Part shown: in pieces, positions 1,190 through 14,999 of the stretch
Layout of the letters: each line of letters opens with the position of its first letter
How positions within the stretch are numbered: position 1 is the stretch's first letter
Source of the DNA: a virus
Lineage: Duplodnaviria; Heunggongvirae; Uroviricota; Caudoviricetes
Virus record (IMG/VR): IMGVR_UViG_2563366959_000014
Length of the DNA: 14,999 nt
Strand: one strand, 5' to 3'
Notes under the pieces: model-generated
The model's database searches: none
What the model saw: only the letters and a program-made list of their open reading frames with translations
Told to the model about the DNA's origin: nothing
Translations under genes and position numbers: made by a program

Positions 1190-2851
1190 TTACACCCCGC
1201 TAAATTCTTCCAGTTTCTGGCGGTGGCTGTCGCTTATATCAAAAGCAAAATCCTCATGCTCTGCCTGGAATGTACCAAACGCCATCAGCGCCGCTACGCT
1301 CGGGTCTATCTTGTTCGGTGATTTTTTCTTGTTCGGCTTGATATTGGCGTTCGCGTCACTCTGCATCACGACGTTACTCATCGACCAGGACAACACCGGA
1401 TCGCCACGATGCACAATCACCCTGCGGTTAACAAAAACTTCGAACGATTTCGCCGCCGGACTGAATCTGAGGTAGGTTTGCGGGAACGGCTCCACCTCAA
1501 AACCAGCCCCCTGTAATTGCGTTCTCAGGTGCGTGGCGTTCCACGTATCAAAGCCCACCAGCCTGATATTAAATTTCTCCGCATCCTGCATGATGTCATC
1601 TCTGATCCGGTCGTAATCAATGCAGTCACCTGGCGTTGTGCGTATCCAGCCCGCTTTAGCCCACTGGCGATAGACAGCGCGGTTTTTATTGGCGGGGTTC
1701 TGTAGCTGGAACTCCGGCAGATAATGACGGGAAATCAGCATAATGGTTTTACCAACCGGAAAGGCATAGCACACGCTGGAAATATCGCTGGTTGATGATA
1801 AGTCCAGCCCCGCGTAACACTCCTGCCCGTGTAAATCTTCCTCCGTGAACGTTCCGGCACACTCAGCCCATGCGCCGTAACCCATCCACGGGGTAGCCCC
1901 CTGGCACCAGATATTAAATCGCTTTGTCATCATCTCCACCCATTGCGACGGAATACCCCGCGCTTTCTGGATGGTTGAGGCCAGTTTTTCACGATCCACG
2001 GAAACATCGATGTTAGGGTTAGCCTTTATCCACATCGCCGGATCATCAACCTCGTTTTCGTCGTCCAGCTCGTAAATCAGCACAAAAATTGAATCGTTGA
2101 CCTCTTCGCCGTCCAGGATCTGGCAGCAATAATCATAGTGCTGTTTACAGGCTGAAACGACGTTACTGCCCGATGTGGTAATGGCAAATAACAGCCCTTC
2201 GGGACGTGCGCCCATCCCCAGCTCAAGCGCGGAATAAACGCCGTTATCGGGGTGTAGGTGGTATTCGTCCACGATGGAAAGGCTTGGGTTTGTGCCCTCG
2301 ATGGTTGCCGCTTTTGCTGCCAGCGGCTTTAACAGGCTGTTGCTTTTCGGGTGCATCACCTTGTGGGCCTGAATATTCACCCGCCTGCGTAACGGTCGGG
2401 ATAAAAGGCACATCTGACGCGCATCATCAAAAACGATCCGCGCCTGGTCACGGCTCACCGCTGCGGTGTAGATATCCTGCTGCCCGTTCTCCATAATCAG
2501 AAACCAGTTAGCCAGAATCGCGGCGGTCGTGGATTTCGCATTTTTGCGCGGCACTTCGATAAAGGCGCTCGTGTATTTGCGCCGTCCGGTGGCCTTAACC
2601 TTAAAGCCGAGGATGCACGCAAAGGCGAACTGCTGCCACGGCTCCAGCTCAATGGGTCTGCCACGCATCGGCCCTTTTACGTGCGGGCACACCCTGGAAA
2701 AGGCAATAAACCGCTCCACGACCTCACGATCGAACGTATAAAGGGGGTTTTTAAGGTCAGAAAAGTACCGTTTAACGGCCTGTTTCAGCCGTTTACAGGC
2801 CGGAATTTTGCCCGTTTTTACGTCTTCTGCGTACTTATTCCAGGCGGTCAA
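1190..2851 (-). CDS. Terminase large subunit (TerL)
   Basis: 553 aa with N-terminal ATPase region and C-terminal nuclease-like region typical of HK97-type large terminases. Starts with TTG (AGAGGA Shine-Dalgarno upstream), overlapping the TerS 3' end by 17 nt. Confidence 0.9.
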   Translation of the reverse strand: MTAWNKYAEDVKTGKIPACKRLKQAVKRYFSDLKNPLYTFDREVVERFIAFSRVCPHVKGPMRGRPIELEPWQQFAFACILGFKVKATGRRKYTSAFIEVPRKNAKSTTAAILANWFLIMENGQQDIYTAAVSRDQARIVFDDARQMCLLSRPLRRRVNIQAHKVMHPKSNSLLKPLAAKAATIEGTNPSLSIVDEYHLHPDNGVYSALELGMGARPEGLLFAITTSGSNVVSACKQHYDYCCQILDGEEVNDSIFVLIYELDDENEVDDPAMWIKANPNIDVSVDREKLASTIQKARGIPSQWVEMMTKRFNIWCQGATPWMGYGAWAECAGTFTEEDLHGQECYAGLDLSSTSDISSVCYAFPVGKTIMLISRHYLPEFQLQNPANKNRAVYRQWAKAGWIRTTPGDCIDYDRIRDDIMQDAEKFNIRLVGFDTWNATHLRTQLQGAGFEVEPFPQTYLRFSPAAKSFEVFVNRRVIVHRGDPVLSWSMSNVVMQSDANANIKPNKKKSPNKIDPSVAALMAFGTFQAEHEDFAFDISDSHRQKLEEFSGV

Positions 2852-3191
2852 GCTCGTCCTCTTCTTCTGTTTCCGGTGGATTTTTACGGCGGCTTATCGG
2901 GTCAAAACCGAGCAAAGAGGCCATTTTTATCATCACTCTTTCCGCGTCGGATTTCGCGCTTAATGCGGGGTTTCTGCTCTCGCCGCCCTGACTGTTAACA
3001 ATGCTGAACCCGCGCGCCGCAAGGTCTGCGACGGCTTTCCGGTATATTGAGTAATTGACGCAATACAGTTCCAGATTACTCCAGTCGGCAGGGGTCAGGT
3101 CTCCCCGTTCCGCAAGCTGCCGCGATTTTTCCCGCCACTGCTTCACGGCGATATCATCCAGGTAGGCGGGGGCTTTCGGTGGTCTTGCCAT
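2835..3191 (-). CDS. Terminase small subunit, P27-family-like (TerS)
   Basis: 118 aa; sequence pattern (PKAPAYLD...LTPADWSNLELYCVNYSIY...ESRNPAL) fits P27-family small terminases; directly upstream of TerL. Confidence 0.85.
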   Translation of the reverse strand: MARPPKAPAYLDDIAVKQWREKSRQLAERGDLTPADWSNLELYCVNYSIYRKAVADLAARGFSIVNSQGGESRNPALSAKSDAERVMIKMASLLGFDPISRRKNPPETEEEDELDRLE

Positions 3192-3240
3192 GCTTATTTT
3201 TTCGCCAGATTATTTTTCAAAAAATTACCGTGCATAAAAA

Positions 3241-3310
3241 TTTGGGGAGGCGGTCGGTTCTGGGCGGGGTCGGGTTCGTCCTGAAAACTCCCCCCACCCC
3301 GTCCGGCTGC
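3241..3310. other. Candidate cos / packaging-recognition region (G-rich block followed by C-rich block)
   Basis: GGGGAGGCGGTCGGTTCTGGGCGGGGTCGGG followed by CCCCCCACCCCGTCCGG, embedded in an AT-rich gap between HNH and TerS, where HNH-dependent cos phages place cos. Positional inference only. Confidence 0.3.
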
Positions 3311-3314
3311 CTCA

Positions 3315-3488
3315 TCAGCGATTGCGGAAACATTCCATAACCTCGCGGTCACGGTCGTTTAATCGCGTCGCTGTGATGCGTTCTGCGCGTCCTGATGCTT
3401 TATCTTTATGCCCTGTTTCCTGTGCCTTCCATGCGTCACGCTGCCTTATAAGTCCACGGATAAGGCGGTTTTGTTCCCGCTCATTCAT
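3315..3488 (-). CDS. Small charged hypothetical protein (57 aa)
   Basis: ATG at 3488 overlaps the HNH stop (3481-3483) in the arrangement ATGAATGA, suggesting translational coupling. No family recognised; could be spurious. Confidence 0.35.
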   Translation of the reverse strand: MNEREQNRLIRGLIRQRDAWKAQETGHKDKASGRAERITATRLNDRDREVMECFRNR

Positions 3489-3921
3489 CAGCGCCATACA
3501 TCCAGTTATTGCGGTTAGCGCCCCGTTCTTCCTCCTCACGGAATCCACCCGCAGCACGCTTGTTTTTTGTGGACGGATCAAGCCATTTCGTTTTCTGGTT
3601 ATGACACGCCTGGCACAATGGCTGATGATTCCACTCAGGCCAGAAGAGAACATCATTACCGCCATCGATTGGGATAATGTGATCCACCACCACGGCGGGC
3701 GTGTATATTCCTTTTTCCAGGCAATGCGCACATAACGGGTTTTTACTCAGATACATGGCGCGGTATTTCTCCCACTGCCTCGTATACCCTCGCTCCCTGC
3801 TGCTGCCTCTCCGGCTGTCCTGCTGCTGGCGTGCGCTGCGTCTGTGCTCCTCACACTTGCCGGACTTCACGCGCCTGTTGCAGCCTGGTTCTGTACATCG
3901 TCTTAATGGTTGCCACGGCAT
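3481..3921 (-). CDS. HNH endonuclease (terminase-associated)
   Basis: 146 aa with cysteine-rich N-terminus and the motif VDHIIPI...N.QPLCQACHNQKT; sits next to TerS/TerL as in cos-packaging HK97-like systems. Confidence 0.9.
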   Translation of the reverse strand: MPWQPLRRCTEPGCNRRVKSGKCEEHRRSARQQQDSRRGSSRERGYTRQWEKYRAMYLSKNPLCAHCLEKGIYTPAVVVDHIIPIDGGNDVLFWPEWNHQPLCQACHNQKTKWLDPSTKNKRAAGGFREEEERGANRNNWMYGADE

Positions 3922-4217
3922 CAGTACACCCCCACATCACGGTAAGCCGTCCAGAGTGCGCCAATCGTCATGGGTACGTGTGTTTTTGCGTTATCCGCGA
4001 CAATCTGGCGATTCTCATACAGGTGAGCGATAAACATCATGCAGCCAATCTTTATGGCTGGCGTGAACTCCAGCCCGTCATCAAAGCGCCTGCCTATGTG
4101 TATCTGGCACGCCTCAAGCGATGCGGCAATGTATCCGCTGATTAACTGGTCTTCCTCGTCGCCATCGATGCGGCAATGGAGTTTCACTTCTTCCAGGGTG
4201 ATAAGTTCTTCTGTCAT
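3921..4217 (-). CDS. gp6-like head-tail connector protein
   Basis: 98 aa; N-terminus LITLEEVKLHCRIDGDEEDQLISGYIAAS matches the gp6-like connector pattern. Start and stop overlap neighbouring genes. Confidence 0.8.
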   Translation of the reverse strand: MTEELITLEEVKLHCRIDGDEEDQLISGYIAASLEACQIHIGRRFDDGLEFTPAIKIGCMMFIAHLYENRQIVADNAKTHVPMTIGALWTAYRDVGVY

Positions 4218-4552
4218 TTTTCCGCGCCCTCACGACAAAGAATTTCAAGGCGTGTCCTGGCGGCATCCGGCAGCGGCTGCCCGATGATATTCAGTACACG
4301 CCCCGCCAGCGGCCCCGTATTGACCTTTATCCGGCTGGTGGCGTTGATGTCCTTCCGGTACCGTATCCAGATCCTTACGGTACCAATCGCCAGCTCTGCA
4401 CCCGATGAAATGGCCTCCTTGCTGCTGACCATGTTCACGCTTGCCCAGAGTGTGTGACCGTCCTCCCACGTTTCGAGTATTTCTCCCGTCATGGCTCTGG
4501 TCTGTTTCAGGGTCTGAATCGTTACCCTGTCACGCAGTCGCCCTATGTTCAT
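4214..4552 (-). CDS. Head closure / head-tail adaptor protein
   Basis: Begins MNIGRLRDRVTIQ, with the IRYR and NIIG motifs typical of head-tail joining proteins; ATG at 4552 overlaps the portal stop (ATGA). An alternative start at 4594 is possible. Confidence 0.8.
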   Translation of the reverse strand: MNIGRLRDRVTIQTLKQTRAMTGEILETWEDGHTLWASVNMVSSKEAISSGAELAIGTVRIWIRYRKDINATSRIKVNTGPLAGRVLNIIGQPLPDAARTRLEILCREGAEK

Positions 4553-5760
4553 TCCGGTTTTTCTCCCTCGCTGATTTTTACTTCCTGTTTCCATGCCTGG
4601 CTGAACTCATCACCACCATCACGCGGAGACAACCCTTCTCGTTCGCGGGCTTCGTTCGGGCACATAACACCGGATTTGATGCCTCGCTCATAGGTGGCAA
4701 AGCGTTCGCCAGGTGTGGCCCGTAACAGGTCCGCGCTGTCAAACTCCACCTGATACCGGATACCAGGTACAGGCGAGACCACCAGCAAAGCGTTTTTTAT
4801 CTGCTGCTCAAAGTTCGCCAGCCACGGGCGCATCGTCATGGTGAGAAATGCGCGGCTTGCCTCGCTGAAATTGCTGTAGGTGCTGTTGCTGTATTCCTGC
4901 AGAAAAATCGGCGAGACGTTGAACATTCGGGCGATGTCTTCAATGGTGAAGCGACGGGAGGCCAGCCATTCGGCGTCCTGGTTACTCATGCCCAGCTGCT
5001 GGTAACTCATGCCCCCTTCAAGGATGGGCGTTTTTCCGGCGTTTTTGGCCCCTTTATAGCGTTCCAGTGCGGCTAATGCCTGTTTGCCTTTCACGCCGTC
5101 CAGCCATTCGCCTGACGTGATAACCCCTGCCGCCATCATGCCATCACGCATCACGCTCGCGCCGTGGCGTTGTTGGGCCAGCCCAAGCCCCAGCGATTCG
5201 CGGCAGATGGTTACGGGTGAGCGCCCCATAAAGCCGTCATCCGTGGAGTAACGAAGGTGAAGTACTTCCCACGGTAAATAGTTGCGGGTGTTTCCGGTGT
5301 AGGCGTCAGTGATGCAATAGCGCCAGTTGTGTTCTCCTGTCTGCTCCACGTTCACCGACTGCGGCGGGTAAGGATGTAAAGCCGCCGGAAAACCATCACG
5401 CCCCCACTGAATCACCGCGTAAGCATTACCGTTTAACAGGCAGTGGCGGATCATCATTCGCTTAAACTGGTAGGGAGTCTGCCACGCGTTCGGGCGCTCG
5501 TTGAGGATGTGATCGACCGGATGAGAATCAAGCCACTCGCGGGCCTCCTTCCCCTTCTCATTGCGTACCAGGTACAGGTAACACGGCATAGTAGCCACCG
5601 CCTCAGAGATGACCGTGACGGCGTTCATGACGGCGGGCAGTGATTCCGCTGTCCCCGATGATACATACTCACCCGCCCCCGTGTTTAATGTACCAGCCAG
5701 CGCCATAAATTCATCAAGCGTCATGCTGCGCTGCTCTTTTTTTCTTCTGAAAGGCCACAT
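4549..5760 (-). CDS. Portal protein, HK97 family
   Basis: 403 aa, portal-like sequence features; ATG at 5760 one nt after the protease stop, GGGGGTG Shine-Dalgarno. Confidence 0.9.
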   Translation of the reverse strand: MWPFRRKKEQRSMTLDEFMALAGTLNTGAGEYVSSGTAESLPAVMNAVTVISEAVATMPCYLYLVRNEKGKEAREWLDSHPVDHILNERPNAWQTPYQFKRMMIRHCLLNGNAYAVIQWGRDGFPAALHPYPPQSVNVEQTGEHNWRYCITDAYTGNTRNYLPWEVLHLRYSTDDGFMGRSPVTICRESLGLGLAQQRHGASVMRDGMMAAGVITSGEWLDGVKGKQALAALERYKGAKNAGKTPILEGGMSYQQLGMSNQDAEWLASRRFTIEDIARMFNVSPIFLQEYSNSTYSNFSEASRAFLTMTMRPWLANFEQQIKNALLVVSPVPGIRYQVEFDSADLLRATPGERFATYERGIKSGVMCPNEAREREGLSPRDGGDEFSQAWKQEVKISEGEKPE

Positions 5761-5761
5761 A

Positions 5762-6319
5762 TCACACCCCCGCTAAATCCACCCACCAGCGGCGATTATC
5801 CGCACGCGGCATTTTTTCGGGGTGCTGCTCATACAGGGAACGGCGGACCAGCTCCACACCGGAATCGGGGTAAGCCGGTACGGATGTGACGGTAATTTCG
5901 TACAGTTCCGCAACCAGCACGGTGCGCACGCATGGATCTGTTGTGGTATCCCATACATCCTTACGGGAACGAAAGCCAAAGCTCATGCCGGATATATCAC
6001 CACGCTTAACCAGTTCGATAACGTCCCGCCCTGTACTGGTATCCGGTGGCGTCAGTTCAAAGCGTAACCCTGTGTCGTCCTCTTCCAGTTTCAGCGAGCC
6101 GGAACGGGTGCGCCCCAGTAACATGCTGTGGTCATGCTCATACAGGCCGCGAACGTCATTACCCGCCGCAAGCCACTCAGTAAACGCCCCCCGCTGAAAT
6201 TTTTCGTAAAACTCACCCCATAGCAGATCAGAAAGGTTATTCCAGCGAACAACGTAACCCGTCAGCGTGTTGCTGGCGCTGGTGGTGATTTCCGATGACC
6301 GGATTTCCATACTCTTCAT
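5762..6319 (-). CDS. Prohead maturation protease, HK97 family
   Basis: Sequence pattern (GYVVRWNNLSD...ISGMSFGF...EITVTSVPAYPDSG) fits HK97-type prohead proteases. Start chosen at the internal ATG at 6319 (MKSMEIR); the longer ORF to 6433 would overlap the capsid gene. Confidence 0.85.
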   Translation of the reverse strand: MKSMEIRSSEITTSASNTLTGYVVRWNNLSDLLWGEFYEKFQRGAFTEWLAAGNDVRGLYEHDHSMLLGRTRSGSLKLEEDDTGLRFELTPPDTSTGRDVIELVKRGDISGMSFGFRSRKDVWDTTTDPCVRTVLVAELYEITVTSVPAYPDSGVELVRRSLYEQHPEKMPRADNRRWWVDLAGV

Positions 6320-6344
6320 AATTTTTTTCACCCATAAAACACTA

Positions 6345-6364
6345 AAGGGGCTTTTTAGCCCCTT
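6345..6364 (-). terminator. Stem-loop between capsid and protease genes (possible partial terminator or attenuator)
   Basis: AAGGGGC / GCCCCTT 7-bp stem with a 6-nt loop, 10 nt after the capsid stop, followed on the minus strand by a moderately U-rich stretch. Confidence 0.35.
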
Positions 6365-6374
6365 CTGTATGCTG

Positions 6375-7532
6375 TTAATCGTCGTCCTGTGGCAGTTCCA
6401 GAATCTTGATCGCGTTCGAATCCACCACGCCACCGCCTAAATATTTCTGCGTGAAAATTTTGATGAATCCTGGTTCTGTCAGGTTGTCCGGTCTGGTGCG
6501 AACACCCGTTTCGTGATCAACAATGTAGTAACCGCGTTTGAAGTCACCCAGGGCAATAACGTTATCCGGCATAAACTCCAGATATTCGACCGGAAGGCCC
6601 AGCAACGTATCAGGATCACCAGCCTGTAAACGGTCGCGCCAGATGTAATCACCGTTCGCGTTCTTCACCTTCTGAAGTTTTGCCGCCGTCGTGGAGTTAA
6701 CCACCCAGACCGCGTTTTTGCGGTATTTTTTACGTAATGCAAATTTCAGGTCGATCAGCGGGTCCGCAGATGTCCACGCAAGAGACTCAGAAGGCTTAAT
6801 TACCTGCAACGTACCAAAATCACGCTCTTTGTCGTTCTTCTCTGCACGGGGTACGGATAAAAAGCCTTTTGCTTTTTTGTCACCGTCGCCCACAACCAGA
6901 TCGCTTTCTTCGATTTCCGTGAAGGTGTCGCCAATCTCGCCCGTCAGCCATGAAAGGATGTCCACATCGGAAAAATCCACGATTTCCTGTGTGGTGCGCG
7001 GGTACGCATAGACCGGATACAGCTTAATGCTCACCTCGTTAATCTGCGGGGTGCTGGTCTGTTCGCGTGACTTACCCTCTTCACCGTGGTTAACGGTCGC
7101 ACCGCCAGCGGAAACAAGCTGCTTAAACTCGTTGCTGCTGATTTTCTTCACGGTACAGATGCGGCGCATGGTGGATTCATCCGCCAGCATTCGCATGATT
7201 TCGGTGTTCAGTTCAGGGATAACGGTATAACCACCATCAGCGGGGACACCTGTACTTAATGCGCGGGTTTCACCTGTCAGGATGTAGTTGCGGAGTTCTG
7301 CCGGGTCAGTGGTCTGGCTGCTTTTACCTGGCTTGCTGCGATCTTCGTCTGCAATGGCTTCAAGGCGGGAAATGTCTTTATCGAGGGATTCAGCTTTAGC
7401 GCGTAATTCGTCAAATTTTGCGCCCTCTGCATCGTTAAGGCTGCGGTTTTCTTTTTCCGCGTTCTCCAGCATGTCGCGCATCTGATTTTTAATGGCGGTT
7501 TTCTGCTGGCGTAATTCGATTATTCTCGGCAT
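6375..7532 (-). CDS. Major capsid protein, HK97 fold
   Basis: 385 aa from the ATG at 7532 (MPRIIELRQQ); N-terminal coiled-coil-like delta-domain region followed by a capsid-like body; directly upstream of protease and portal. Confidence 0.9.
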   Translation of the reverse strand: MPRIIELRQQKTAIKNQMRDMLENAEKENRSLNDAEGAKFDELRAKAESLDKDISRLEAIADEDRSKPGKSSQTTDPAELRNYILTGETRALSTGVPADGGYTVIPELNTEIMRMLADESTMRRICTVKKISSNEFKQLVSAGGATVNHGEEGKSREQTSTPQINEVSIKLYPVYAYPRTTQEIVDFSDVDILSWLTGEIGDTFTEIEESDLVVGDGDKKAKGFLSVPRAEKNDKERDFGTLQVIKPSESLAWTSADPLIDLKFALRKKYRKNAVWVVNSTTAAKLQKVKNANGDYIWRDRLQAGDPDTLLGLPVEYLEFMPDNVIALGDFKRGYYIVDHETGVRTRPDNLTEPGFIKIFTQKYLGGGVVDSNAIKILELPQDDD

Positions 7533-7540
7533 AAAAAAAA

Positions 7541-7570
7541 GTCCTGGGGTTAAGTAAGGAACTCCAGGAC
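7541..7570 (-). promoter_or_regulatory. Stem-loop followed by U8, immediately 5' of the capsid start codon
   Basis: GTCCTGG / CCAGGAC stem with a 16-nt loop, then eight T on the minus strand running straight into the capsid ATG; the only AGGA-like Shine-Dalgarno lies in the 3' stem arm. Confidence 0.3.
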
Positions 7571-7748
7571 GCGGCAAAAACTCAACCGTTTTTCATAAGG
7601 AAATCAGCAATCGCACCGATCGTTTTCCCGCCTGGTAATGAATATTGGTGAGCACATTAACAGGCGGGAAAGTGGCCCCAGCGTCCTGGCACCACTGGCG
7701 AGAATAATCATGATTCAGGGCGGGTAAAATATGCCGATCCGGTCAATG

Positions 7749-9712: not shown

Positions 9713-11530
9713 TTAATTTTTGCTATCGTCATTAGTGACCGATACACATGACGGCATCCAGTCTTCTGATTCCTCCGTCAGTGTCACGTTTGAACGCAAA
9801 CCGTGCTTCGTTTTCCGTTTCATATACTCCCTGCCATATTCCGCCATTGCCCCCGGCATATCTTTACCGAAGCGCGTCAGTGTTACAGGTTTACCAAACC
9901 CATGTGCCTTCATATAAGCCAGATAGGCATGATAGAGATACCTGCGCGGGCTGAATGGCACAATTTCAGCATTACCCACTAACAGGCCATCACACATTAC
10001 CGACGCCATGAGATAGCCGCAGAAGTCCACCAGCGAATCACCTTCACGCTTTATCGCGAGTGCTTCTTCTGATTTCTGCTGCTCATATAAAAGGCGTCTG
10101 GCTTCGTCCTGGTCAGCAAACCGTGTAAGCAGATGACGAATCACTACCGCCAGCTCACCTTCTATTTTTTCCGCCAGCATTGAATCGCGTTCGTTCTCCG
10201 GTACAACTTCCGAAAAATTGAATATCACCCGACGGCGCGAGATCCCCCCGCTGCGGTCACTGAATGACATGGCGTTATTGTTAACCGCCAGCACTACTGC
10301 CGGAATACGCGTTGAGTAGGGGGCTTTGTGTTTCGGGTCAATTGCCACCTTGTCACCGCCTGTAATGGCCTTAATTCCTGCCCCATCACCAGCGTAGCGG
10401 GTCATATCCGGCATGATAATCAGCGAAAAGCCAACCACTAACGCGCGTTCCCTTGCATCTTCCAGCGCCTTCATGCTTGCCGATACTGTGTTGGCCTTAC
10501 CCGCCAGCATGGTGCAAATCTCCGCCATCACGCTTTTACCACTTCCCCCTGGACCTGTTACCTCAATGAATAACTGCCAGTCGTACCGGTTCGCCAGCAC
10601 CATGAATAATGCAGCCAGTACGCGATCCGCCTTGCGGTCATTCTCAGCCACCGAACGGCGTAACCACTTCCAGAAATTCGGCGCATGTGTTGCCAGCGTT
10701 TCTCCCTCTGCTGGTGGGCTGAAAGGTAATTCACTGGCAATTAACAACCAGTCGTTTTTGTTATGCTCCCGAAAATCGCCTGTCCGGGTATCAAAAACAC
10801 CGTTACTGAATCCAATCAGGTTACGGGCTGTATTCCCCATTACAGGCAAACTTAACTTCATGGTATCGACCGCCGATTTAATGGCGTTCTGCGAATAGCT
10901 GATCTCCGCATCAATGAAAATCTGTGCCATAGCTCGCTGTAATTCTTTATCCTGTACTGGCTCCCATACAACGCCGTTGTAATAGTGAACAGTGTCAGAG
11001 TCAGCATGAATCGCCAGTTCACCGCCATAATGTGCCAGGAGAACTTCGCCGCGTTGACTTGCTCCCATCTGGTTAAGCGCCAGTGATGAAGCGTTATCGT
11101 CTTTTACCCGCTCTTTTTTCTTTACAGGCAGTTCAACTACCTTTTTCTTTTCCGCCTGCTCTGCCCGTTCACGTTCCAGATATTCGCGCCAGTTCTCCCG
11201 TTTCTGGCTGTGCATTCCTTCAGGGTAATAATCAGCATCCCTGACACCTGCCGCTGCCAGTTTCTGCCCGATGGTATTAACAAGCCCCGGACGCAATAAC
11301 CCCGCCTGGTAGAGACGCACGCGATAGCGTCCGTCCGGTACGATTTGCAGGTTGTCCAGTTCGGCAAGTTGTTGCTCTCCAAGCCAGACAGGAGGCACGC
11401 TGTCGCCAGCCAGTCGCCCGTCCTGTTCCTGCCACTGCTTCGCATGTGCCCACGCATCACTACCCGCAAAAATGATGACTTCCGTCATTTTGTCACGTGG
11501 CTGGTGTTTTAAATTTGGCGCTTTTTTCAT
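9713..11530 (-). CDS. Replication primase/NTPase, P4-alpha C-terminal-domain family
   Basis: 605 aa from the ATG at 11530 (MKKAPNL), which overlaps the upstream stop (ATGA) and follows a GGAGAG Shine-Dalgarno. Walker A motif GPGGSGKS and a Walker B-like hydrophobic stretch; followed by the iteron origin. Confidence 0.85.
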   Translation of the reverse strand: MKKAPNLKHQPRDKMTEVIIFAGSDAWAHAKQWQEQDGRLAGDSVPPVWLGEQQLAELDNLQIVPDGRYRVRLYQAGLLRPGLVNTIGQKLAAAGVRDADYYPEGMHSQKRENWREYLERERAEQAEKKKVVELPVKKKERVKDDNASSLALNQMGASQRGEVLLAHYGGELAIHADSDTVHYYNGVVWEPVQDKELQRAMAQIFIDAEISYSQNAIKSAVDTMKLSLPVMGNTARNLIGFSNGVFDTRTGDFREHNKNDWLLIASELPFSPPAEGETLATHAPNFWKWLRRSVAENDRKADRVLAALFMVLANRYDWQLFIEVTGPGGSGKSVMAEICTMLAGKANTVSASMKALEDARERALVVGFSLIIMPDMTRYAGDGAGIKAITGGDKVAIDPKHKAPYSTRIPAVVLAVNNNAMSFSDRSGGISRRRVIFNFSEVVPENERDSMLAEKIEGELAVVIRHLLTRFADQDEARRLLYEQQKSEEALAIKREGDSLVDFCGYLMASVMCDGLLVGNAEIVPFSPRRYLYHAYLAYMKAHGFGKPVTLTRFGKDMPGAMAEYGREYMKRKTKHGLRSNVTLTEESEDWMPSCVSVTNDDSKN

Positions 11531-11826
11531 TTCTGCTCTCTCCACGCGGCAATCATGTTTTTTAGTTCCTGTAGTTTTTTATCAACATCCATACATGACA
11601 CATGGTTATTTCTGGAAAGCGGGATTTCCCGCCTGAATCTGCTAATAAAGATCTCCACGTTCAGCGAACTAAGAAATGAATAGCCATCACGGATAAAATA
11701 CACTCGGTCAAACATCAGTTCTTTTACCGTTACTCTGTTACCGTTCTTATCCAGATAAATAGCGCCGGGGATAATTTGGGGGTGTGCATAACCGCTGGCA
11801 GTCAAGCCAGATAAATATGTTCTCAT
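11527..11826 (-). CDS. Hypothetical protein (99 aa), AT-rich
   Basis: ATG at 11826 with GGGGA Shine-Dalgarno; stop overlaps the primase start. No family recognised. Confidence 0.55.
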   Translation of the reverse strand: MRTYLSGLTASGYAHPQIIPGAIYLDKNGNRVTVKELMFDRVYFIRDGYSFLSSLNVEIFISRFRREIPLSRNNHVSCMDVDKKLQELKNMIAAWREQK

Positions 11827-13781: not shown

Positions 13782-14999
13782 TTATTTTCTTCTGGCTACG
13801 GGTAGCGTGGTTACGTTTTCATGTGCTCCCGCCAGTATCCCTAACCGCTCCGTCCACATATCCAGCGCATCACGTTTCGCATCCAGATAACGGGAATGGT
13901 TATAGACTCGTTGCATCCCTGGCATCTGATGACCTGTAAGCTGCTCCACGACGTGAGGATCCGCGCCTAAATCGTTCAGCATCGTTGTAAAGGTGCGCCG
14001 GATGTCATGCAGTGACCATTGAGGGTGTTTTAGCCTCCTGTGCGCTAATCTGCCGTACTGCGATACGCTGGCCTCCTGTTTCACTTCCCCCAGCAATAAG
14101 CCCGTGTGCCTGTTCTGCTCCACCAGCTTCATGACAAACGGCAGGATCGCTTCCGGTATGGGCCGGAATATTGCGACCTTCGTTTTGCTGTGCTCCTTCG
14201 GAACGGTCCATAGCATTTCCGTAAAATCCCACTCCCCGATCTCCGATAACCTCAGTTCTACCGTTCTGGCACCGAAGACAATCAGGAGGCGGATTAACGC
14301 GACGTAGTAAGGGGAAAATATTTTTTTATCCAGTGCCTGCAATAACTCGCCAAGTTCTTTGGTGCTTAAGACACGCTCGCTTATATCCGGTTTTTTCCCA
14401 ACGTCCGCAACGTTCAGATCGTCCAGAACGTTGCTGATTGCATAGCGCCGCCTACGGCAGAACTTAAGCGCCTGTTTGCACGCCTGTAGCACGAATCCGG
14501 CAGTAACAGGCGTTCGCTTTGCCACCTGGTCAAAACAAGCCAGCCAGTGCCGTAGCTCGCATTTATCCAGCGGCATAGCACCAATGTGCTGTATTACGTG
14601 ATTATTAAGTCGCCTTTTCAGGGCGATATAATCCACGCGGTTTTCCTTTACGTAAGACTCAAGCCAGTAGGTAAGCGCATCGCCAACCGTTACGGGCTTT
14701 AACGCTTCCTGTACGGTGTAATTCATCTCATGACGTGGATTTTTCCCCTCAGCCAGCCATGCGCGACACTGTGCGGCTTTTTCCCTGGCTGCTTTCAGGC
14801 TCAGATCAGGATAACTTCCCAGCTTAATGCGTTCGGGTCGTGTCTCCCTTCCCGTTCCGGCCCTGTATGTGAAATACCATGTCAATTTCCCTGATGTTAA
14901 ATATTTCACGCTCAGGTTTCCGCCATCACTATAAAACGTGTTTTTCTCAGCTGGCTTACCATGAAGTTTCCTTAGCAATGTATCGCTCAGTTTGTTCAT
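13782..14999 (-). CDS. int: Tyrosine integrase, P4-type
   Basis: 405 aa; N-terminal arm-binding-like region (YSDGGNLSVKY...WYFTYR) and a C-terminal catalytic region with the conserved HDIRRT and a tyrosine near the C-terminus. ATG is the last three bases of the window. Confidence 0.9.
   Translation of the reverse strand: MNKLSDTLLRKLHGKPAEKNTFYSDGGNLSVKYLTSGKLTWYFTYRAGTGRETRPERIKLGSYPDLSLKAAREKAAQCRAWLAEGKNPRHEMNYTVQEALKPVTVGDALTYWLESYVKENRVDYIALKRRLNNHVIQHIGAMPLDKCELRHWLACFDQVAKRTPVTAGFVLQACKQALKFCRRRRYAISNVLDDLNVADVGKKPDISERVLSTKELGELLQALDKKIFSPYYVALIRLLIVFGARTVELRLSEIGEWDFTEMLWTVPKEHSKTKVAIFRPIPEAILPFVMKLVEQNRHTGLLLGEVKQEASVSQYGRLAHRRLKHPQWSLHDIRRTFTTMLNDLGADPHVVEQLTGHQMPGMQRVYNHSRYLDAKRDALDMWTERLGILAGAHENVTTLPVARRK

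Follow-up and report, generated by a model that had tools for sequence, protein, structure and literature searches.

A probable HNH-dependent cos site upstream of terS in an E. coli capsid-forming PICI

The window analyzed here, a stretch of 14,999 nucleotides, is a ~14.8-kb capsid-forming PICI (cf-PICI) of E. coli of the EcCIEDL933 type, and several lines of evidence make it highly probable that the cos site of this island lies within 3210-3300, in the non-coding gap next to the small terminase gene. The site is very probably the expected HNH-dependent cos of the HK97/phiE125 type belonging to an E. coli satellite, rather than a new kind of element. A first-pass annotation had put the gap forward as a cos candidate, and that proposal is supported by the packaging module encoded around it, by conservation among related islands, by matches to physically mapped cos junctions, by the positions at which contigs of relatives end, and by the literature on cf-PICIs.

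The assignment of the window to this class of satellites follows from the Pfam and RefSeq annotation and from the att repeats, which show the features by which cf-PICIs are defined in the literature; in the same annotation tail and lysis genes are absent from the window. Gene names (Table 1) are those of Pfam and of the RefSeq annotation of NZ_CP144930, an identical E. coli chromosome, and the minus strand, the gene strand of what follows, carries all long open reading frames of the window. The packaging module is complete and HK97-like, with TerL and an HNH endonuclease encoded beside the cos candidate: by BLASTP the HNH protein is 38% identical to HK97 gp74 (E=1e-18) and TerL is 27% identical to HK97 gp2 (E=1e-46). 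No solved structure was found with the TerS sequence as query. Neither the 93-aa ORF after terL nor the 60-aa ORF upstream of the gap has a Pfam match. The latter overlaps the end of the HNH gene by 17 nt; in enterobacterial relatives the DNA of its 3′ end, just ahead of the stop, is conserved, the remainder is strongly divergent, and Pasteurellaceae relatives are without this ORF. A 23-bp direct repeat, TGACTACACCAGTGACTACACCG, occurs at 212-234 of the window and again at 24338-24360 of L001, just past the integrase and the end of the window. The two copies are spaced 14,825 bp apart and delimit a 14.8-kb island inserted in tqsA; the repeat is likely the att core, within the split tqsA gene. 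The copy at 212-234 falls inside 139-895, the interval that the first-pass annotation had named as an alternative location for the DNA ends. Similar sequence is present in 533 of 5,426 complete E. coli genomes.

Table 1. Features of the island and of the predicted cos region, in window coordinates. Identities are mean pairwise values over 32 related islands; box sequences are those of the gene strand.
Feature	Position	Strand	Basis or remark
93-aa ORF, RefSeq hypothetical	895-1176	minus	directly after terL
terL, 553 aa	1190-2851	minus	PF20441 and PF03354
terS, 118 aa, P27 family	2835-3191	minus	PF05119, E=1.3e-23; RefSeq
Whole predicted cos region (conserved core)	3210-3300	minus	nhmmer profile match 3300..3210, E=3e-24
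Box C, AT part, AAATTTTTATGCACGGTAATTTTTTGAAAAATA	3211-3243	minus	most conserved segment, 84% identity
Box C, GC part, GAACCGACCGCCTCCCC	3244-3260	minus	78% identity; holds the predicted nick sites
Predicted 10-nt 3′ cohesive end, 5′-CGACCGCCTC-3′	3247-3256	minus	profile column and spacing anchors
Variable spacer, conserved length	3261-3274	minus	41% identity, almost indel-free
Box G, GGGGTGGGGGGAGTTTTCAGGACGAA	3275-3300	minus	74% identity; G-run 3290-3300; upstream of predicted cut
60-aa ORF, RefSeq hypothetical protein WP_024166058.1	3315-3497	minus	between HNH and cos site
HNH endonuclease, 146 aa	3481-3921	minus	PF01844
Head-tail connector	3921-4217	minus	Pfam/RefSeq
Head closure	4214-4594	minus	Pfam/RefSeq
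Portal	4549-5760	minus	Pfam/RefSeq
Prohead protease	5762-6433	minus	Pfam/RefSeq
Major capsid	6375-7577	minus	Pfam/RefSeq
Primase	9713-11545	minus	Pfam/RefSeq
Integrase	13782-14999	minus	Pfam/RefSeq

The gap at 3192-3314 is exactly the non-coding interval from the TerS start codon (3191-3189, minus strand) to the stop of the 60-aa ORF (3315-3317), and its composition is extreme. On the plus strand no other stretch of the 15-kb window is as rich in G as the block at 3244-3279, which has 19 G in 30 nt where the runner-up has 14 and 21 G in 36 nt where the runner-up has 16. Next comes a C block at about 3287-3314, whose 18 C in 30 nt equal or exceed the count of any other stretch in the window. 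A joint score for the two kinds of block in this order reached 36, higher than in all 200 block shuffles (mean maximum 28.1, sd 1.2, top 32), so the claim that the gap holds a G-rich and then a C-rich block unlike its surroundings is upheld. The G block is conserved only in part, in that 3244-3260 is conserved and 3261-3274 is variable and G-rich by chance in this element. Two details of the original description need amending. The blocks were said to lie inside AT-rich DNA, which is correct on the TerS side, where 3194-3243 is 78% A+T, but not on the other side, which is coding; and the gap was said to lie between HNH and TerS, which is right as to gene order, although the HNH gene is not the direct neighbor of the gap and the 60-aa ORF intervenes.

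Comparison with related islands resolves the gap into a conserved element with an internal structure. Regions upstream of terS were gathered from 80 IMG/VR loci, from 39 loci in species-representative genomes of Enterobacterales, Aeromonas and Pasteurellaceae, and from phage-collection records, and the alignment and profile were made from 32 diverse cf-PICI copies from Enterobacterales, Aeromonas and Pasteurellaceae. Across these 32 islands from three bacterial orders ~91 nt, corresponding to 3210-3300, align nearly gap-free, with the gene-strand consensus GGGtGGGGG..gtTTt.a..A.aAA, ~14 variable nt, then gg.ACCgCCC.CCcccTCAAATTTTTAcGCacgG..aTTTTTT.gAAAatA; named elements of the site are a G-run, a CGACCGCC box and a T-tract. 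Both parts of box C, as well as box G, are better conserved across the three orders than terS coding DNA (mean pairwise identity 68.5%), and identity in the flanks is 38-40%. The G-run and AAATTTTT are 45-47 nt apart in almost every copy despite the variable sequence of the spacer. The profile match to this element is the sole significant one in the window (next E=0.37), and the site is single-copy: one match was obtained, in the window as well as when 25 kb of chromosomal context was included. A one-mismatch match to an IHF site in the AT-rich part was found in this element only and, being absent from the consensus, was dropped. Some relatives depart from the common arrangement: in three loci (L116, L118 and L120, from Rodentibacter, Haemophilus and Bisgaard taxon 46) ~100 nt are inserted between the conserved box and terS, and the insert holds short palindromes such as CCAATTTTGG and CCAAATTTGG. 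A single assembly, of Pasteurellaceae bacterium Macca, carries at least nine loci with this TerS type (L108-L115, L124), which is unusually many for islands of this kind.

The conserved element resembles cos junctions whose ends have been mapped. An nhmmer profile built from the cf-PICI copies only was searched against 145 kb of phage end junctions and phage interiors. Its best match was the phiE125 end junction (E=5e-6), followed by ST64B (E=3e-4), AbIPP1 (E=1e-3) and the HK97 end junction (E=0.018, weak by itself); the best match to a phage interior had E ~3. Two of these phages were rejected as references for the ends themselves, AbIPP1 as a record re-set to begin at the terS ATG and ST64B as a circular record. 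The record ends of HK97, phiE125, PhiS63 and Zirinka all lie between HNH and terS; those of HK97 and phiE125 are mapped cohesive ends according to the literature, and the deposited ends of PhiS63 and Zirinka were taken at face value. The HK97 record runs from cut to cut, with right end ...GGGCAGGGGGGGGGATCAAATCTTCAAAACCTTTGCCCCAAATGACCGCCGCCAAA, left end GTTTGAATTTAACGCTAACCCGATTTTTTTAG... and terS from position 50, and the phiE125 record ends ...GGGGAGGGGGGAGAAAAAGTCTGGAAGGTGCTGCCTTCGGGACCGCCCGCTTC and begins GTCGAATTTTCACGCCCGCG....

These junctions allow the cut in the window to be predicted at the nucleotide level. The mapped cuts of phiE125 and HK97 share one profile column boundary, 54|55, which is 3247|3246 in the window. 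The junctions also share a set of spacings: the cut follows the end of the G-run by 42 nt in HK97 and phiE125 and by 43 nt in PhiS63, ACGC begins at +12 in HK97, phiE125 and Zirinka, and T6 begins at +24 in HK97 and PhiS63. The window fits these three anchors within 1 nt if the cut is placed at 3248|3247 or 3247|3246. The gene-strand nick is accordingly predicted from the aligned sequences at 3247|3246 and the nick on the other strand at 3257|3256, each ±1 nt, with the length and polarity of the 10-nt 3′ overhang assumed to be as in HK97 and phiE125. The cf-PICI consensus of the predicted overhang is CGCCCGCCCC, and the overhang box lines up with CGCCCGCTTC in phiE125 and with CGCCGCCAAA, the final 10 nt of the HK97 record. 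For the exact cut (±2 nt) together with a 10-nt 3′ overhang, our confidence is only slightly better than even.

Packaged DNA of two relatives also bears on where the genome is cut. The record vB_KppS-Ant (LR881103.1) was obtained from lysate DNA of K. pneumoniae DSM 30104 with a Nextera XT library and SPAdes. An identity of >99% with a part of the genome of its host was reported (PMC8006926), which identifies the record as the cf-PICI KpCIDSM30104. Although its source paper presents Ant as a filamentous ssDNA phage, this element is a cf-PICI that encodes capsid, portal, HNH and terminase; behind terL it also has a 2.3-kb gene whose annotation is tape measure protein. A virome clone, MF417951, has been reported to be 90% similar to Ant. 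The record (L002) is linear, 16,548 bp long, begins 22 nt before terS and continues through terL, the attachment junction, int, capsid, portal, HNH and the small ORF to its end at ...GGGGTGGGGGAGGTTTTCAGGAC. Relative to the integrated copy in ATCC 13883, which is the same strain as DSM 30104, exactly 69 nt are missing from Ant, and the predicted cut divides these into 31 nt and 38 nt. A second element, ~88% identical, forms the last 15.86 kb (90,645-106,503) of PQ569648.1 (L299), the 106.5-kb 'complete genome' of Klebsiella phage P12620-1. It is colinear with positions 24-16506 of Ant, so that it shares the permutation of Ant, with its ends in the same gap. The P12620-1 record looks chimeric, with the left junction of the cf-PICI joined at terS nucleotide 2 to unrelated sequence.

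Both Klebsiella lysate assemblies are unit-length and non-permuted, and their ends lie 31-73 nt from the predicted cut on either side, not at the cut itself. Tagmentation libraries of linear DNA lose a few tens of bases at each physical end, and a circular or concatemeric template would give overlapping contig ends. We attribute the shortfall of the Klebsiella contigs to this loss of coverage near linear ends, with coverage drop-out in a compositionally extreme stretch as an alternative cause of the breaks. A rough calculation gives a breakpoint placed at random in a 16-kb circle a probability of <1% of landing in the gap, and two independent assemblies break there. He et al. reported that packaged KpCIDSM30104 DNA concatemerises via the cohesive ends of cos sites, and cf-PICIs are reported to rely exclusively on TerS, TerL and HNH of their own when they package their DNA. 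A scan of IMG/VR and metagenome contigs for the conserved box gave no clear pile-up of ends, nearly all matches being internal to contigs; of the IMG/VR loci found with TerS none begins near terS, and most come from isolate genomes. One metagenome locus (L256, 2384-2409) stops at C|AAATTTTT / C|AAATTTTTACGCACGG, 2-3 nt from the predicted cut, and was excluded as evidence because a true end, an assembly-graph break where the conserved box begins and a storage boundary are indistinguishable there.

Taken together, the data are consistent with the following sequence of events. After induction the 14.8-kb island would excise, circularise and replicate, and its own terminase, composed of the P27-family TerS and the HK97-like TerL, would recognise the ~90-bp site at 3210-3300 together with HNH. 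By analogy with HK97, TerS would bind the AT-rich, T-tract part on the terS side, at about 3211-3243, which is the probable cosB-like part of the site. The position in the window equivalent to the TerS site of HK97 (+15..+29) is 3218-3232, inside the best-conserved segment; this assignment is by position only, because HK97 TerS and P27 TerS are unrelated in sequence. TerL and HNH would then nick both strands of the conserved CG(N)CCGCC box in a staggered manner, with the second nick 10 nt upstream of the gene-strand nick, leaving the 10-nt 3′ ends listed in Table 1, and packaging would start at the terS end and proceed through one unit genome until the following cos is reached. Box G, at its fixed distance of 42-43 bp before the cut, would lie on the end packaged last and may act as a cosQ-like element or as a docking element for the nuclease or HNH. 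The composition of the gap, its conservation, its resemblance to mapped cos sites and the contig ends of relatives are observed, and we infer the exact nicks, the length and polarity of the overhang, the roles of the boxes and the direction of packaging from HK97 and phiE125.

Several other functions could be envisaged for a conserved, compositionally unusual gap at this location. The G and C blocks might form an RNA hairpin in the minus-strand transcript, an intrinsic terminator or an attenuator that would separate the morphogenesis genes from terS-terL. An inverted repeat is present (3262-3274 / 3292-3304), and the sequence of the window can fold here into a long imperfect hairpin of -35 kcal/mol that is followed after some bases by UUUUU, but this fold is no better than that of shuffled sequences (z=-0.4 as RNA, -1.0 as DNA) and a terminator scan found nothing in the gap. 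The inner stem moreover uses the variable spacer, and the pairs formed in the window are kept in 60% of cells as against 44-50% for slid controls; the RNAalifold consensus of the relatives reaches only -4.4 kcal/mol, and the sole Rfam 15 match, mir-483, is at chance level (20 bits against a cut-off of 60, E=0.41). A spacer of constant length and variable sequence suits a protein-DNA site rather than a stem, and we regard the hairpin as very improbable. That the composition is a fluctuation without function has practically no probability: only the small size of the region speaks for it, whereas the composition score lies above every shuffle and the boxes out-conserve coding DNA across three orders, and it is this conservation that refutes the chance reading.

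Protein-binding sites of other kinds were also considered. The segment is conserved, non-coding, AT-rich and directly upstream of terS, as would be expected if the boxes were the promoter or operator of terS-terL and not a cleavage site. Yet a promoter scan found no sigma-70-like promoter on the gene strand within the gap, phiE125 and HK97 have the same architecture where their DNA ends were physically mapped, and the lysate-derived contigs of two relatives break in the gap, so that a purely regulatory role is highly improbable, although the boxes may serve a dual role as promoter/operator and cos. A pac-type site, at which terminase binds and cuts imprecisely to initiate headful filling without unique cohesive ends, would also place a conserved sequence here, as TerS recognition sites of pac phages are likewise in or beside terS, and the ends of this E. 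coli island are predicted ones. Against it stand the pairing of an HK97-like TerL with an HNH partner, which is typical of cos systems, the match of the site to mapped cos junctions, the reported annealing of packaged KpCIDSM30104 DNA through cohesive ends, and the unit-length, non-permuted form of both lysate assemblies; headful packaging from this site is accordingly a most doubtful prospect. An HNH-dependent cos is the reading that we retain.

The packaging of cf-PICIs with their own TerS, TerL and HNH and with cos ends has already been described in the literature, and our understanding of how such cos sites work is unchanged by the present results. In the searchable literature we found neither the position nor the sequence of cos for KpCIDSM30104, EcCIEDL933 or other cf-PICIs. 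What is new here is the delimitation of the site, a prediction of the cut at the nucleotide level, its conservation in three orders, and the interpretation of two database records as cf-PICI genomes that end at cos, which explains the shape of these records. The cf-PICIs, which are recently described and widespread satellites, thereby gain a testable cos sequence with a predicted nick and a 90-bp fragment for packaging assays, and the conserved box offers a simple marker with which to orient and delimit their packaged genomes.

A broader interpretation concerns the arrangement of the site. The tripartite architecture is common to the cf-PICIs of three orders and to phages with unrelated TerS proteins (HK97 gp1 versus the P27 family), and the Firmicute phage PhiS63 shares it in spacing. 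It is a speculative and on balance unlikely possibility that the G-run 42-43 bp before the cut, the CGNCCGCC overhang box, and ACGC at +12 with a T-tract at about +24 constitute a common nuclease-recognition core of HNH-dependent cos sites. If so, most of the site would be read by TerL and HNH, with TerS reading only the AT-rich part, and the G-run would be an undescribed element required for termination, in the manner of cosQ. In that case cf-PICIs and some resident phages, for instance ST64B-like ones with an almost identical box, could each cut the DNA of the other.

The closest parallels among known systems are the phages from which the cut was predicted. In the Burkholderia siphoviruses phiE125, phi1026b and phi644-2 the cos site has a 10-nt 3′ overhang, 5′-CGCCCGCTTC-3′, documented as a 3′ extension for phiE125 (PMC2920897). 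Like the window, phiE125 has a P27-family TerS, an overhang that aligns to the CG(N)CCGCC box, a G-run that ends 42 nt before the cut, and GAATTTTCACGC after the cut with ACGC at +12; the upstream gene product, gp70, resembles the HNH protein of ST64B, as judged from annotation notes only. It differs in having no T-tract at +24 and in being a full phage of a betaproteobacterial host, where the window is a satellite, and its ends are mapped experimentally whereas those of the window are predicted. HK97 shares with the window the order HNH, cos, terS, terL and the total spacing, with the end of the G-run 42 nt before the cut, ACGC at +12 and T7 at +24. Its cos has a 10-nt 3′ overhang, and cutting is stimulated by the HNH protein gp74 (PMC11331095, PMC9410871); its TerS binds +15..+29 and reads a G plus, or next to, an A-tract (PMC11331095). 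In contrast to the window, HK97 has a TerS (gp1) without sequence similarity to the P27 family, and the last 10 nt of its record differ (CGCCGCCAAA). The satellites KpCIDSM30104 (vB_KppS-Ant) and EcCIEDL933 agree with the window in gene order and in the conserved site, with Ant TerS 84% identical to that of the window, and differ in the spacer and the small ORF.

Other systems resemble the predicted site in function. The cos of lambda (cosQ-cosN-cosB) works alike, as a unique site cut by staggered nicks, in which TerS binds on the side packaged first and an upstream element lies, as proposed here for box G, on the side packaged last; the likeness drawn is a functional one. Lambda has 12-nt 5′ overhangs and no HNH partner, and relies on gpNu1 R-sites and an IHF site. 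P4 and the cos-SaPIs such as SaPIbov5 are, like the window, satellites packaged as unit-length cos genomes; they copy the cos of a helper and use its terminase, whereas the E. coli island has its own terminase, its own HNH and a cognate cos.
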